Assembly: GCA_964016885.1 (NCBI GenBank)
Contig: OZ024744.1
Location: forward strand, 19,344,001-19,408,000
Reading direction: 5' to 3'
Length of the DNA stretch: 64,000 bases
Origin: Eledone cirrhosa
Lineage: Eukaryota
Shown: positions 4,527 to 63,540 of the stretch, piece by piece
Layout of the letters: each line of letters opens with the position of its first letter
Numbering within the stretch: the first letter of the stretch is position 1
Made by a program: the position numbers and the translations under genes
Notes under the pieces: model-generated
The model's database searches: none
What the model saw: only the letters and a program-made list of their open reading frames with translations
What the model was told of the DNA's origin: nothing

Positions 4527-4788
4527 AATTAGGTTAAATTCGCATTTTCATCTGTCGAATACACACGATTCGCTGGGAAATTATTTCCACAACTCTTCAG
4601 TCCGACATCTTTAAAATGTATTTTGTCAGGATTATATAACTGGTAACCGACTCGCCAGGTTCTCTCGCCTTGAATAAGAACTCTCTAGTAGACTTTCAAA
4701 TTCTGAAAACATATCATTCAAAGATGTGCGACTGATGAACTGCGAAATGCGCATTTTCGACAAATGAAAATGTGAATTAAGCTAATTT
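4527..4788. mobile_element. Small foldback element with two outward-facing degenerate hammerheads
   Basis: Inverted ends ~4527-4560 and ~4757-4788. Minus 4553-4607: tgtcgga CTGAAGA gttg..cagc GAAT cgtgtg TA ttcgaca. Plus ~4724-4762: CTGATGA actgc GAAA tgcgca tt. Confidence 0.65.
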
Positions 4789-5888
4789 TATATAATACAA
4801 CGCGTCCCACACACACACGACATATATATTAGATACACACACATACACACAAACAGACGCACACACGCACACACACACACACACACACGCACACACACAC
4901 ACACACGCACGCGCGCACACACACGCACACACACACACACACACACACACACACATACACACACACACACACACACACACACACACACAAACTCATATGT
5001 ATATATGTATGTAAAAATGATATTCATTGCTCCAATCAGTCTATTAACACTCAACAAACACCCTAAAACGAACGCCAACCTCTACCCATAACCCCACCCA
5101 AACCAAACCATATTCACCCTCCAAATTCGACAAATCATATGTAGTTTATCATTCTCCAGAACTTAGCTTACGTAACCAGACCGCAACAGACACCTCATGG
5201 GGGAGAGAGTCGTTTTCAAACTACAGCTGCCATGTTACATAGTTTCTATAAAAGAAGAGAGAGGGAGAGAGAGAGATAGATAGATAGATAGATAGATAGA
5301 TAGATAGAGAGAGAGAGAGAGAGAGAGAGAGAGAGAGAGAGAGAGAGAGAAAGAGAGAGAGAGAGAGAAGGGGTGGCACTAAAACGAAGGACAAGCAATA
5401 CATATAATTAATGGGTGATCACTTGAGTTGATATCAATTTATTAAGGGTTAATAATATCAGCAGATTTATAGAGAGGTATTTAATTATGTACATGTATGT
5501 ACACGTATGTATGTATATACATTTATGTATCTCTCTCTCTCTCTCTCTCTCTCTCTCTCTCTCTCTCTCTCTCTCTCTCTCTCTCTCTCTCTCTCTCTCT
5601 CTCTCTCTCTCTCTCTCTCTCTCTCTCTCTCTCTCTCTCCCACCTTTCTAGTTTCCTCAATAAGTGACATGTATTTCTTGAATTCATATTTTACGTTCTG
5701 AATATGAGGTCTGACCATATTTCGATTTTAATATCACCTAGAGTTATTGATTGCTATATTGATATGTCTCAATCTTGTGGATCGAATTGTGATTTTGTCT
5801 TCTGAAACAATTGTAATCAAATAAATACTTTTTCAAGTATTTTGGTTGCTTATTCTCCTACTATATATATATATATATATATATATAT

Positions 5889-6078
5889 AACGAAGGAAAT
5901 GTGGTAAGGAACCAGGTGGACCATAACGCACCAAAGTACTCAATACTTAGGGTAGTAGAGTGGGTAATAGGAACGAGTAGGACTCCGACGGCTGAGCTCA
6001 AGCCGTTTCGACGGCTAATTCTGGACTCTTGTCCGTCGAAACGGTTTGAGCTCAGCCGTCGGAGTCCTACTCGTTCCT
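5889..6078. mobile_element. Short foldback repeat carrying the 3' half of a hammerhead (family also at 43178 and 55755)
   Basis: ~46-bp inverted repeat aggaacgagtaggactccgacggctgagctcaagccgtttcgacgg, flanked by (TA)n. Contains GAAA-cggct/agccg-TC. Confidence 0.75.
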
Positions 6079-6148
6079 ATATATATATATATATATATAT
6101 ATATATATATATATATATATACAGAGTATAAAAGTTTTAATATAGATG

Positions 6149-6199
6149 AGATTCTACAGGACTAGAACTGTTTCATACTTTAGAAATCATCAGGAATCT
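6149..6199 (-). ncRNA. Type I hammerhead ribozyme motif (weak stem II)
   Basis: Minus strand: agattc CTGATGA tttctaaagtat GAAA cag ttctagtc ctg TA gaatct. Stem I is a perfect 6 bp, triplet GUA. Confidence 0.7.
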
Positions 6200-6289
6200 G
6201 GCCTTCCAAAAATAAATGTTATGGTATTTATATCTTTTCAGGTGGTAGGAGAGGGTGGGGAGTGGGATGGGTGGAGGTCATTGGTTGAA

Positions 6290-6615
6290 AGAAAAGGGAA
6301 TTCATTAAAAGCTAATTCTTTAAGGCTATAATTTATATTTAGAGTGACAAAGGCAGAAAGAATTCTATAAACAAGTTCAGAATGGGGTGCCACTCCTTAT
6401 TTTTAAGTTTCTCTTAAGCTAACAATGCCTATATTTCAGGTGTCTATAAGATCATTGGGGGTCGGACATGATTGATGGATTTAAAGAAAAGGGAAATTAT
6501 TTAAAAGCTAATTCTTTAAAGTTCTAATTAGAGTGACAACGGCCAAGAGAATTATATAAACCAGTTCAAAATATTGGGTGCCTATCATTATCGTCAAATT
6601 TCTCTTAAGCTATAT
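6290..6615. repeat. ~190-bp diverged direct repeat, partial second copy
   Basis: ttaaaagctaattctttaa...ttagagtgacaa...tttctcttaagcta occurs twice (~6306-6421, ~6501-6612). Confidence 0.65.
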
Positions 6616-6726
6616 TCCAGGTGTTGACAGACATATTCACACACACACACACACAAACACACACACACACACACACACACACACACACACACACACACAC
6701 ACACACACACACACACACATATATAT

Positions 6727-60480: not shown

Positions 60481-60589
60481 AGTTGCTTCTTATATATATA
60501 TACAATATATGTTTCAGCTGCTATTACCACAAACCACCAAGGAGGAGAGAATGAAAGGAAAATGTGAACATTTTTTTATATATATGTAT

Positions 60590-61915
60590 AACTTACTTAT
60601 TTGAAAGCAATAATCTCTGAACTCCAGCCAGCATCGGTTCCATAATGGGAGAGATTGCCTTTTGAGAGCTTTGGGAGAGGGCTCCAACACTGATGTCATC
60701 TACCTTGATTTCAGCAAGGCCTTTGACAGTATGATCACAACATTCTATTGAGAAAACTATCCAACATTGGTGTCACTGGAAATTTACTACAGTGGATCAA
60801 GTGTTTTCTGACAGACAGAGCCCAACATGTTGTAGTCAAAATAATAAAATCAAGCCCAACCAAAGTCAGCAGTAGCATCCCACAAGGCAGTTTTGGGTCC
60901 ACTTCTTTTCATCATCTACATAAATAACATTACTGACATTATCAAGCACAGCAACATAAGAATCTTTGCAGATGATTCCAAGCTACAGAAGGTCTTCAAT
61001 GAGAGTGTGACCTGACATGCCTTCAGTCAGACCTACTGGCTGTTATCCAATGGGCGGAAAAGAACAATACGTTGCTGAACGAGGATAAATTTGAGTTAAT
61101 CCAGTTTGGAAAACTCCCATACTCCCTTCCTTCAGGTGAAACTGTCGTGACATCCAACAACATCAGAGACCTGGGAGTAATTGTGGACAGCAACATGAGC
61201 TGGGTCACTTATATAAACAGCAAGGTTGATATGGCCCCCAGAATGTGTTCCTGGATTCTCAGAACCTTCCAGTCAAGAGATATCAACACTATTATCCTTC
61301 TCTTCTCCACTTTTTCCAGATCCCACCTTGAATACTGTTGTCCACCGTGGTCTCCCAACACGAAACAAAGTATCATGAAAGTTGAAGCTCCTCAAAGGTC
61401 AATTACAAAAATGATAGATGGCATGGCAGACCTTGACTATTGGAGTCGATTATAAAGCTCAAACTTTATTCTCTCCAAAGCCGCCGCGAGCGCTACATTA
61501 TCAGCATGATGTGGAAAATATTCCATCAGTTTGCCCAAATGGTGTTGGCATCCCCTTTAATGTACACCCAAGGCTTTGGACCCGTGCTATCCGCCCACGA
61601 CAAAAATCTCACTCGCATCTCATAACAACAATACGGCTCAATTATTTCACCTCGATTGGCCCCGCTCTCTTTAACATTACAACAAAACACATCAAAACAG
61701 AAACAGACCCCATCAAGTTCAAGAAGTCTTTGGACAAATTACTTCAAAAAATCCCAGATAAACCTCCTAAACCCAGATATGTCTTTGTAAACAACTGTCT
61801 ACTTGAGTGGGCCATGGTGTCCAAATTCTGATTTGAAAAACTTCGCCAGGTGGTGCTATTAAGTTAGAGATGGCCTTGGCCAATACTGGCTAAAACCTAT
61901 CAAAGTCATCAAAGT
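60590..61915 (+). pseudogene. CR1/L2-group LINE RT 3' fragment
   Basis: DVIYLDFSKAFD, PQG..LGPLLFIIYIN, IFADDSKL, RDLGVIVD, HLEYC..WSP. Frameshifts, short repeated tail atcaaagt. Confidence 0.85.
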
Positions 61916-61960
61916 TAAATACAATATATATATATATATATATATATATATATATTTAAT

Positions 61961-62117
61961 TAATTACATAATAAACAACACAATATAATTATTCCATAAC
62001 CTAAGGTTTCAAGAAACTAGATGATCCTTACAGAAACGTCCGGCTCGTTCATCAAATGAAAAAGTTATGATAACTATTTCATGGAATAATTATATTGTGT
62101 TGTTTATTATGTAATTA
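61961..62117. mobile_element. Short foldback element (~36-bp inverted ends) with a degenerate minus-strand hammerhead
   Basis: aattacataataaacaacacaatataattattccat is inverted at 62081-62116. Minus: ttcat TTGATGA ... GAAA ccttagg TT atgga. Confidence 0.6.
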
Positions 62118-62485
62118 AATAGCTCTATACAATACACACACACACACACACACACACACATATATATATATATATATATATATATATATATATATATATA
62201 TATATATATATATATATATATATATATATATATATATGTGTGTGTGTGTGTGTGTGTGTGTGTGTATATATATATATATGTATATATATATATATATGTA
62301 TGTTATATATATATATATATGTGTGTATATATATATATATATATATATGTATATATATATGTATATATATATATGTATGTTATATATATATATATATATA
62401 TATATATATATATATATATATATATATATATATATATATATATATATATGTATATATATATACACACACATATATATGTATTTAT

Positions 62486-63090
62486 GTCAGGTCACCAGTT
62501 GGTGCTACTGGTAACATGTATCCCAGTACAACCTGTCTCATGGTCGGGTCGTTGACGACTAAACTGGCAACCCCACCAAGGTTTCTTGGTGAGGAGGGTG
62601 ACTTTGGACATCCTGCAGGACTAAAAACAAAACCTGTCAAAGGGCAAAGGAGCTCTTAAGAGTCAATGGCCATCCAAAATCACCGGGAGAGATGACCCCT
62701 TAGCCTTTGTCAAGGCAGAATTCTAGGAGAAGGAAAACTCTGATATAACACCTGCAACTCTGATGGTATCCAATGATGTTGACTTGTTCTTCTTTGTGGT
62801 AAATATCATCTTGGTTAAGAGAGTGGGACTGGCTTTGTGAAGTGCCTTTGCTCACTATAAAAGCTTCACGGCACAGGCATTTTTTTATATCTGGAGATCT
62901 CTCTGCACTTGTCATCACATGGTATCATGGGCCCAGCACTGTCAATATTTGTCACAAGTGTAGTGTTTGTACCAGAGTTTTCAAGTTGCTGTCTGGACTA
63001 AAAAGTCACACTCGTTCAGCGCATCGGTAGGAGTTTTCCTACATGGATATAAAGTAGTGGCCGTACTCGAAAACGAGTTGGCAGCCACCA
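62486..63090 (+). mobile_element. Short bipartite non-autonomous RTE-derived element (5' UTR fused to 3' end)
   Basis: RTE-like 5' UTR (ctaggagaaggaaaactctgat) joined to a C-terminal zinc-finger remnant and 3' hairpin gtggccgtactcgaaaacgagttggcagccac. Inserted in (TA)n. Confidence 0.72.
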
Positions 63091-63159
63091 TGTATATATA
63101 TATATATGTATATACAATATACACCTTAGTTGGGTATATTGGTATTTCATATGATATAC

Positions 63160-63540
63160 TTTAACGACTGAAGACAGAATAGAGAAAAATAAGACAAAAA
63201 CACCAAGAGAGCCTAGAGTAAAAAAGCCAAGACCGATAAATAAAACACCCGTAGACAGGATAAAAACAAAACACACACACACAGGCACAGGCGCAAACGC
63301 ATGCGCAGACATGAAATTAAAAAAAAAACGCATTACGAAACAAAAAACAAATCAAGATATAATAGAAATATAAGACCAGTAATAAACAGATAATAATTGA
63401 GGAAGTCACAGAATGTGTGACGAAAGAACTTTGACAAACAAATGAATAACGAACAATAAGCATAAAATGAAAATTATATGGTGTGTGTGTTTCTTTCTAT
63501 TGGCAATATTGGCAACATAATTATCTCCAAATATAACAAT
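63160..63540 (+). mobile_element. Diverged copy of the 43425-43770 HHR element
   Basis: TTGAGGA a gtcaca gaatg tgtgac GAAA gaac tt tgac (~63397-63435). Ends with attggcaacat..aatataacaat like the 43425 copy. Confidence 0.7.

Follow-up and report, generated by a model that had tools for sequence, protein, structure and literature searches.

With good confidence, the 64,000-nucleotide stretch of Eledone cirrhosa DNA analysed here (the window) is typical of a genome full of Penelope-like elements (PLEs) that target (TA)n; six of its hammerhead families derive from coding PLEs, of which they are truncated 3' ends, and five consist of non-coding tandem repeats, likely copied in trans by Hydra-type PLE enzymes. 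Fifteen motif families were examined (Table 1). Besides the six (PLE1, PLE2/G, F, H, D and L) and the five (A, B, I, J and N), there are four, E, K, M and O, for which no coding helper was found in the loci examined. An earlier note on this DNA had described a dozen or so unrelated hammerhead families, most of them in non-coding elements, and proposed associating each with a coding PLE. The non-coding character stands for A, B, I, J and N and gives way for the 6 of 15 that are coding PLE ends; the association was made for these six and gave no link for E, K, M and O.

Table 1 Hammerhead-bearing and PLE-derived elements in the window
Element	Position	Strand	Description
Family E	4527..4790	.	Old two-armed hammerhead remnant; cores near 4600 (-) and 4732 (+), decayed here
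Family F, two-armed stub ("half motif")	5890..6077	.	3' end of Hydra-type coding PLE, U3-A8 hammerhead
Family G (PLE2 3' end)	6122..6630	-	Canonical core at 6193
Family H	6729..7712	-	5'-truncated, 5'-inverted 3' UTR of Hydra-type coding PLE
Family I	14123..15095	-	Non-coding 566-bp tandem repeat, U3-A8 core at 14386
PLE1 copy	15358..18609	-	Hydra-type, with C-terminal GIY-YIG after RT and a frameshift in this copy; U4A hammerheads at 15512 and 18600
Family A array	18643..39712	+	33 complete non-coding monomers (~437 bp each), with (TA)n spacers
Family J	19169..19790	-	Non-coding 524-bp repeat in first A spacer; core with long stem II at 19360
Family B	32883..35857	+	Two-armed array; non-coding 317-bp monomers with U3-A8 core, 99-100% identical
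PLE1 3' end	39775..40518	-	Decayed core at 39916
Family F stub	43185..43235	-	
Family D	43427..43825	-	3' end of coding PLE with CxxxxCxxC linker (Neptune/Nematis-type); core at 43619
PLE2 fragment	44215..46215	-	Hydra-type (CxCX5C, C-terminal GIY-YIG), runs into own TG/TA tract
Family K	46760..47297	+	Hammerhead at 47168, 60-nt stem II, U16.1 mutated here
PLE1 two-armed stub	47297..47609	.	Core at 47350 (-)
Family L	48110..48345	+	Minimal hammerhead at 48223; 3' end of Neptune/Nematis-type coding PLE
PLE1 3' UTR with internal inversion	53652..54837	+	U4A core at 54682
Family F, two-armed stub with long tail	55757..55951	.	
Family M	55972..57287	-	CA-rich element, terminal classical minimal hammerhead at 56083, decayed here
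Family N	57451..58251	-	Non-coding 655-bp tandem repeat, core at 57804
PLE1 copy, 5'-truncated	58264..60308	+	Core at 60247
Family O	61957..62121	-	Short fold-back stub with a decayed core at 62055
Decayed relative of family D	63110..63545	+	Motif near 63397

Hammerhead motifs in the window and in the genome

A type I hammerhead descriptor (score at least 24) gave 10 matches in the 40,008 nt of non-redundant, microsatellite-stripped window sequence, as opposed to a mean of 0.025 and a maximum of 1 in 40 local dinucleotide shuffles. The descriptor was built after inspecting the window and was then applied to 79 unseen genome stretches, where it gave 107 matches versus 1, 0 and 1 in three shuffles. 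The excess over shuffled sequence expected by the earlier note thus holds both inside the window and beyond it. Based on this systematic 790-kb sample of the 3-Gb genome, hammerhead density is ~135 per Mb, which extrapolates to ~0.4 million motifs genome-wide, and 26 of the 107 fall outside CUGANGA-based core searches. A TA tract lies at most 400 nt downstream of 79/100 sampled hammerheads versus 24.5% of random positions, and in the window it touches one or both ends of 17 of the 21 element intervals (spanning 37.7 of 64 kb), confirming the proposed association with (TA)n. The motifs are genuine and typical of the whole genome, and the window itself is ordinary.

All hammerhead sites previously listed for this stretch exist where they had been placed. 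Intact motifs (score at least 22) lie at 6193, 7639, 18833 (A), 19360, 33751 (B), 43619, 47350, 54682 and 57804; 47350 and 54682 belong to two of the six PLE1 copies, all of which were located. Those at 4553, 47168, 48219, 56060, 61990 and 63397 are decayed in the window and intact in copies elsewhere, and the half motifs near 6030, 43195 and 55830 are truncated copies of one complete U3-A8 hammerhead. The strong motif of family I at 14386 was absent from the earlier list. As regards scrambled hammerheads, the unassigned elements showed only core-like strings. The 150 listed of 382 Rfam matches were microsatellite-driven miRNA models, uninformative for hammerheads, and a Pfam search of the window left the PLE frames without a family and matched only RTE-type RT and endonuclease.

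Coding PLEs and their 3' ends

The dominant coding element, PLE1, had 41,541 first-look candidates, of which 99 were scored, at 93-95% identity and many with 713-residue open frames. Its single ORF (713 residues in 9 of 12 fetched copies, longer in the other 3) encodes an RT followed by a C-terminal GIY-YIG domain. The translations contain DKT, RWR (not RWK), a CxCX5C linker, and CxxC and CxH around E and N; no CCHH motif is present in them, and the element inserts into (TA)n. Judged from these motifs, PLE1 is a Hydra-type protein with a variant hammerhead motif; an Atlas look-up matched only unnamed PLE-like clusters. The hammerhead keeps stems I-III, with a U4A core in 12/12 full-length copies and 44/50 overall, and none of the 50 copies has a canonical core. 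With this core, self-cleavage of the main helper is probably weak or dispensable. Lunse et al. 2017, on PLE hammerhead variants, may already report U4A. U4A fixed in a highly amplified family was found neither in the compared parts of PMC4209133 and PMC3088659 nor by whole-word literature search.

PLE2 (1545 candidates) likewise has a C-terminal GIY-YIG, a CxCX5C linker and insertion into (TA)n, and with family G as its 3' end it has a canonical hammerhead. Inverted G abuts a PLE2 truncation in 10/20 loci, direct G lies downstream of PLE2 in 5/20, and at one locus (L311) the G tail precedes the PLE2 ORF. These junctions overturned two previous readings, namely PLE2 without a hammerhead (13/13 copies ending in a TG/TA tract) and G as a fixed-length SINE-like element. 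The motif at 43580 was ruled out as the PLE2 end because it follows a different ORF. The "Naiad-type" helpers of the earlier note do not hold up, as both coding families are Hydra-type with the endonuclease after the RT and PLE1 has DKT, whereas Naiads are marked by an N-terminal GIY-YIG, a CxC domain and DKA.

The remaining coding-linked families were placed by their distance to an ORF. In two loci a Hydra-type ORF ends 754 and 1118 nt upstream of family F. The hammerhead of family H lies 1400-1456 nt past the ORF end in 7 loci, with U4C in 6/7, and U4C cores occur in the window at 6802 (-) and 7639 (+). Family D has 8 matches in 7 loci, 207-313 nt past the ORF end, and GIY-YIG coding stands directly upstream of two family L copies in one locus (L046); the D and L parents carry motifs of Neptune/Nematis type, features that fit either clade. 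Families E (84 candidates, ~80% identity, intact motif in locus L231) and O (1514 candidates) showed no coding link in 13 loci each. Family K has 2492 candidates, and a coding link for M was sought and not found.

Non-coding tandem families

Families A, B, I, J and N are tandem repeats with periods of ~460, 317, 566, 524 and 655 bp, each unit carrying a type I hammerhead, and the genome searches gave 2532, 930, 2334, 1758 and 4588 candidates respectively (only the 40 best of thousands being scored), N also forming a long array on C4. Their copies are dispersed on many chromosomes as partial tandems with inversions and a tail at one end. The A array has an inverted long end at the left and a short end at the right, an intact core in 19/33 monomers and a star-like structure (5.1% pairwise, without neighbour similarity), with one two-monomer duplication visible. 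In A-like motifs a stem I position is paired in 72/73 copies with four pair types. The B array sits inside an A spacer, and at dozens of sites the units of B multimers share 99-100% identity. Because both B arms are truncated at variable points, linear twin priming with a fixed junction was ruled out. A, I and J have U10.1-U11.1 at the stem II base.

Neither coding capacity nor a contiguous coding parent was found for these five families in the 13-30 best loci per family, and comparison of the monomers with 42 coding-linked 3' ends gave no usable homology. The two monomer-coding matches are A-like and B-like copies adjoining coding fragments, the B-like one with its own inversion. The monomers fold stably (z -2.6 to -7.6), but so does a PLE1 ORF control (-4.7), and circular folding z-scores do not discriminate between monomers and control. 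Being tandem, non-coding and hammerhead-bearing, the five families appear retrozyme-like, with self-cleavage predicted. A look-up for family B listed no RNA data set, and four contig runs of unrecorded kind, three of them with a depth below 6, are uninformative about expression.

Insertion ends, tail hairpin and TA landing sites

Among 33 two-armed insertions of PLE1, A, B, J and N, 25 pair a long with a short end and none pairs two long ends; the others are 6 long with other (alignments running into short-end TA), 1 short with short and 1 short with other. This one-long/one-short rule is common to coding and non-coding families, and, as the earlier note had it, coding PLEs do stand beside non-coding tandem repeats, with a common insertion footprint. 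More than the end rule is needed to name the helper, because the non-Hydra family D is also two-ended and inserts in (TA)n. A tail hairpin, RYTC...GARY, occurs in most copies of 13/19 two-ended clusters against a null of 7.7%, the pattern having been picked after viewing the data and its offset window later widened (9/19 clusters before, 13/19 after). It covaries, with three complementary pair sets, and is present in PLE1, G/PLE2, F and H and in I, J, N and O, and absent from D. As I, J, N and O share this covarying hairpin with Hydra elements, Hydra enzymes are their likely mobilisers. A and B lack the strict hairpin (0/143, 0/195 and 0/30 copies), A's short end being mis-assigned by the automatic rule in this test. 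A strict second hairpin past the long end was found in 0/5 of A, B, I, J and N. By eye, second hairpins past the long end are visible in PLE1, H, I and J.

The 34 window A spacers hold 2 insertions and the A monomer bodies none; elsewhere 4 were seen in 52 A spacers, where spacer-versus-body counts are biased because searches return uninterrupted copies. All five PLE2 internal tracts (5/5) hold hammerhead insertions. Element-borne microsatellites thus take later insertions locally, and A supplies few of the genome's TA tracts (~13 A-like clusters versus ~1,350 TA tracts in 790 kb, ~1%). The landing sites attributed to monomer (TA)n are accordingly borne out as nested insertions, though for A they are minor. 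RTE elements also land in A spacers and PLE2 tracts.

Proposed mobilization and alternative explanations

In the proposed mechanism, a PLE endonuclease would nick both strands of a TA tract and reverse transcription would begin internally on the RNA, at either of two fixed positions that bound the tail, by analogy with a Poseidon PLE in vitro; the small hairpin immediately downstream probably guides this start. Two copies begun on opposite strands would give fold-backs, early stops in copying would give stubs, and multimeric or circular RNA would give tandem arrays. Each insertion would split a TA tract, and later insertions hit the tracts that A and PLE2 bring with them. A wider joint reading is put forward only tentatively, as a possibility. 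On this reading no heavier hammerhead load would have been measured so far (~0.4 million motifs, dozens to >100 families), and Hydra PLEs would recognise passengers via the small covarying hairpin beside the two RT start sites. The decay of the dominant helper's core to U4A, set against the intact cores of the non-coding parasites, would mean that the ribozyme works for the circular-RNA cycle of the parasites; elements would also seed their own landing pads.

Alternatively, the enzyme that copies the non-coding repeats could come from the Neptune/Nematis-type PLE of family D, from Naiads or from RTE LINEs, which we regard as unlikely though worth weighing. D is likewise two-ended in (TA)n, there are RT fragments bearing YGLPK(V/I)HK as well as numerous RTE copies, and A and B lack the strict hairpin. 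However, the hairpin of I, J, N and O is that of all four Hydra-type window families and not of D, and A, I and J have U-U at the base of stem II, as is common among Hydra hammerheads in the literature. LINE copying begins at the RNA 3' end, and two fixed ends are not expected from it. That the window is instead a special hotspot, with a local feedback loop driven by monomer-borne (TA)n, seems improbable. It holds 9 hammerhead families versus 5.3 expected per random 60 kb, J and B are nested inside A, and TA runs correlate with family number across loci (rho 0.46). Yet the family count has P ~0.09 for 60 kb (P ~0.02 when set against 40 kb of non-array sequence), the TA fraction outside the A array is 5.8% versus 4.6% in the genome sample, and A-like elements are ~1% as frequent as TA tracts. 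The concentration described in the earlier note is not peculiar to the window.

A further explanation would treat all families as coding PLE ends, A, B, I, J and N being pLTR stubs of unsampled parents that became tandem later via DNA duplication (satellite birth) and were never mobile as RNAs. Coding parents were found for six families, for G only on a second look, the searches covered the 40 best-ranked among thousands of candidates, a two-monomer duplication is seen in the A array, and such an origin is proposed for vertebrate retrozymes in the compared part of a preprint (bioRxiv 10.64898/2026.07.22.740005). Against it, dispersed copies on many chromosomes are themselves partial tandems, inverted and with the tail at one end, B multimers are near-identical at dozens of sites, the sequence upstream of a full monomer is another monomer and not an ORF, and the A array is star-like. 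This makes it very unlikely, and the outcome that every family is a pLTR fragment, which the earlier note had entertained, was not found because the repeats of A, B, I, J and N are non-coding and run head to tail.

Comparison with known systems

As far as the compared parts of the sources show, the coding elements resemble the Hydra clade of C-terminal-endonuclease PLEs, including Hydra-1_Obim (Craig et al. 2021, PMC8557442), in the C-terminal GIY-YIG, DKT, RW(K/R), the CxCX5C linker and CxxC/CxH at E and N, as well as in the lack of CCHH, (TA)n insertion, a 3' hammerhead, a tail at one end and 5' inversions. They differ in the family-wide U4A core of PLE1 and the U4C core of H, whereas 26/26 published Hydra rows read CUGANGA, in the TG/TA tract inside the PLE2 3' UTR, and in their very high abundance. 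U10.1-U11.1, seen in A, I and J, stands at the stem II base of 14/26 of those rows. U3-A8 covariation, U10.1-U11.1 and U4C are published natural variants (PMC4209133, Cervera and de la Pena 2014; PMC3088659, Perreault et al. 2011), and L and M are classical minimal PLE hammerheads.

Metazoan non-LTR retrozymes (Cervera and de la Pena 2020, PMC7229834; Li, Clavereau, Pollet 2026, bioRxiv 10.64898/2026.07.22.740005) are, in the portions compared, likewise built of non-coding monomers, a few hundred bases long and arranged head to tail, each of which has a type I hammerhead with palindromic stem III; they are dispersed as monomers to multimers beside PLEs, with many families per genome (16 in coral). 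Unlike them, monomers here reach 655 bp with a long stem II, and the families are known from DNA alone whereas retrozymes self-cleave, mostly as dimers, and are expressed as circular and linear RNA; for retrozymes, the literature compared mentions neither (TA)n targeting nor two fixed ends nor a common tail hairpin. The axolotl has 126,247 motifs in a 28-Gb genome, or ~4.5 per Mb, far below the density found here, although the descriptors differ. Poseidon_Ac (Frangieh et al. 2024, PMC11167929), in the sections compared, has two internal start sites bounding a tail, a stem-loop at the start, and cleavage and extension on both strands of AT-rich DNA, with insertion independent of hammerhead cleavage in vitro. 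It belongs to another clade and its sites lie inside the ORF, while those in Eledone cirrhosa lie 25-390 nt past the cleavage site, ahead of the ORF start, and are common to non-coding repeats.

Implications

The component parts are of known kinds, and the hammerhead load, the U4A core variant and the hairpin link do not appear in the literature as far as compared. The proposal that PLEs mobilize animal retrozymes dates from 2020 and draws on co-occurrence and pLTR homology, without a mechanism. One genome here combines abundant open-frame helpers, very young passengers (B), a common end rule and a candidate cis-signal, and trans-mobilization is therefore testable with a published in vitro assay. 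CUGANGA-based searches would miss the U4A family and about a quarter of motifs. The U4A family bears on whether PLEs need their own hammerhead at all, and what looked like an "ecosystem" at the level of the window is ordinary for the Eledone cirrhosa genome.

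Hammerhead motifs in the window and across the genome

A type I hammerhead descriptor, in which G5, A6, A9, GAAA and U16.1 were fixed, one other core change was tolerated and three stems were scored, gave 10 matches at a score of at least 24 in the 40,008-nt non-redundant part of the window (G+C of 36% and 161 TA tracts of at least 12 bases in the whole window), compared with a mean of 0.025 in 40 local dinucleotide shuffles. Every hammerhead site named in the earlier note was present, and a strong motif of family I had been overlooked. Eight families are intact within the window, and six sites are degraded, yet relatives elsewhere carry intact versions. 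The presumed half motifs do exist, but they are truncations of a complete U3-A8 motif.

In 79 evenly spaced 10-kb stretches of the 3.0-Gb animal genome, in which the window belongs to contig C28, 107 matches were found at a score of at least 22, against 1, 0 and 1 in three shuffles. This corresponds to 135 hammerheads per Mb (bootstrap 96-180); if an exact CUGANGA core is required, the figure is 103 per Mb. The matches are distributed over 40 of the 79 stretches and fall into 30 clusters, 17 of which are known from a single locus. Extrapolated from this sample, the genome would hold about 0.4 million motifs; published counts, based on descriptors that differ from ours, are >6,000 for a coral, ~5,000 for a mussel and 126,247 for the axolotl. 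A text search of a 2026 octopus repeat annotation returned no mention of hammerhead or ribozyme. A TA tract lay at most 400 nt downstream of 79 of the 100 background matches with enough room (tandem copies not being independent), compared with 24.5% of random positions. The hammerhead/(TA)n pattern is genome-wide, and the suggestion that this window is a hotspot did not hold: it contains 9 families at a score of at least 22 versus 5.3 per random 60 kb (P ~0.09).

Features of the window and of related loci
Position	Strand	Feature
850-1126		Older A-like relative (82-86% identity) surrounding a TA tract; hammerhead part absent
1400-3110	+	Decayed coding region with RT, presumably a non-LTR retrotransposon with a restriction-like endonuclease tail
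6122-6630	-	Family G
7820-11400	-	Near-intact RTE-type LINE: APE endonuclease, RT, PHD finger; CAT repeat terminus
11593-13968		About four 560-bp tandem units with internal TA/AG tracts, adjoining the RTE element 5' end
14386		Family I hammerhead
14589-14700, 57334-57398		Family I long tail alone, short stubs between TA tracts
40539-41380, 62483-63091		Abundant non-coding element, TA/TACA-flanked
42869-43067, 54858-55044, 46230-46400		Families Z and W, short TA-flanked stubs and fold-backs
54677		Hammerhead at the end of PLE1
G000:C4:175,573,941-175,637,105		Family N array, ~63 kb, 655-bp period
L087 (G000:C3:255,000,001-255,010,000), L056		Tandem hammerhead families not in the window; 556-bp and 310-bp periods

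Coding and non-coding hammerhead families

The two coding Penelope-like element (PLE) families, PLE1 and PLE2, both encode an RT followed by a C-terminal GIY-YIG domain with a CxCX5C linker, and PLE1 additionally shows DKT, RWR, and CxxC plus CxH flanking the catalytic E and N. According to PMC8557442, such protein marks belong to the Hydra clade, whose members insert at (TA)n and bear hammerheads; in Naiads the endonuclease is N-terminal, the motif is DKA and a canonical hammerhead is missing. The helpers had been called Naiad-type; with Hydra-clade marks in both and DKT instead of DKA in PLE1, this assignment is replaced. A search with PLE1 returned 41,541 first-look candidates, of which 99 were scored (93-95% identity), many within 713-residue open frames. 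The terminal hammerhead of all 12 full-length copies fetched has a CAGAAGA (U4A) core with intact stems; over all loci this core occurs in 44 of 50 copies and the canonical core in none. U4 is present in 26/26 Hydra hammerhead rows published in PMC8557442, and U4C, U3-A8 and U10.1-U11.1 are natural variants described in PMC4209133 and PMC3088659. A literature search whose reach excluded Lunse et al. 2017 gave no match for a U4A hammerhead. Two sampled loci (L080 and L085) hold PLE RT fragments with YGLPK(V/I)HK, a third PLE type of the genome.

Whether each hammerhead family is simply the end of a coding PLE has a divided answer. Besides PLE1, the hammerhead of family H lies 1400-1456 nt past a Hydra-type ORF (7 loci), family D 207-313 nt past an ORF whose linker reads CxxxxCxxC (8 matches, 7 loci), family L immediately 3' of Neptune-type GIY-YIG coding sequence (two copies), and family F was also traced to the end of a Hydra-type coding PLE (2 loci). 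Family G is the PLE2 3' end: inverted G adjoins the point where PLE2 is truncated at 10 of 20 loci, direct G lies 1-7.5 kb downstream of PLE2 in 5 of 20, and in one locus the G tail is upstream of the PLE2 ORF; long G copies were absent from the 79 background stretches. Families A, B, I, J and N, by contrast, are non-coding tandem repeats whose copies include partial tandems as well as truncated and inverted forms (candidates: A 2,532; B 930; I 2,334; J 1,758; N 4,588). At the 13-30 best loci of each family, no ORF was contiguous with the repeat. Copies of B are 99-100% identical and spread over many chromosomes. No coding link was found for E, K and O in 13 loci each, nor a coding parent for M. 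For every family, a search scored the best 40 candidates and could miss coding parents.

Insertion ends and tail hairpin

Across families, the short end of an insertion lies at an internal AT-rich site and the long end 34-170 nt beyond, the two bounding the tail. PLE1, A, B, J and N together gave 33 two-armed insertions: 25 had one long and one short end, 6 had a long end and an alignment continuing into the short-end TA, 2 were other, and none paired two long ends. Just past the short end, in 13 of 19 two-ended clusters, most tail-bearing copies contain a 4-bp helix RYTC...GARY (GCTC/GAGC, ACTC/GAGT or GTTC/GAAC). It occurs at 7.7% of random positions, a null that is generous because the pattern was picked after the data had been viewed and the offset widened after a first count of 9/19 clusters. 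All four Hydra-type families carry the helix, as do I, J, N and O; it was not found in D, A and B. A, I and J have U-U at the base of stem II, like 14 of the 26 Hydra motifs in the literature. In A-like motifs, a stem I position is paired in 72 of 73 copies, with four pair types.

In Poseidon_Ac, as described in PMC11167929, reverse transcription initiates at two internal tail-bounding sites on both strands and does not require hammerhead cleavage, which matches the end rule and the U4A tolerance seen here. The element kinds themselves are already published; literature searches covering hammerheads in octopus, twin priming by PLEs and PLE microsatellites in cephalopods returned no account of a comparable load or of the tail hairpin, and neither did the 2026 octopus repeat annotation.

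Element-borne microsatellites as landing sites

The A array comprises 33 full monomers (core intact in 19) at 5.1% divergence, with no neighbour effect save one two-monomer duplication, and its ends are one inverted long and one short, as in a single insertion. J and B occupy 2 of its 34 TA spacers (~2 kb in total), while the monomer bodies (~15 kb) contain no insertions. Elsewhere, 4 of 52 A spacers contain insertions, against none in 27 kb of monomer bodies, a sample biased by selection of intact matches. Of the traceable PLE2 copies, 5 of 5 have hammerhead-bearing insertions within their internal TG/TA tract. Therefore, element-borne microsatellites do get hit, as had been proposed for monomer-borne (TA)n, but A-like clusters number only 13 against ~1,350 TA tracts in 790 kb, i.e. 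~1%.

RTE elements also insert in such microsatellites, and the 3' ends of the RTE-type LINE at 7820-11400 are likewise often within TA tracts. In the tandem adjoining this element no hammerhead was found, and it has no copies in the 79 background stretches. The abundant TA/TACA-flanked element forms 13-17 clusters in 790 kb (~94% identity) and lacks a type I hammerhead. Families Z and W have near-identical copies elsewhere in the genome, W also in long tandem arrays at the neighbouring locus L050.

Taken together, the window probably represents PLE ends and retrozyme-like passengers, with Hydra enzymes as the likely mobilisers. The passenger transcripts would self-cleave and form circular RNA, to be mobilised in trans, and the tail hairpin may be functional in this process; the case for Hydra enzymes as mobilisers is firmer for I, J and N than for A and B.
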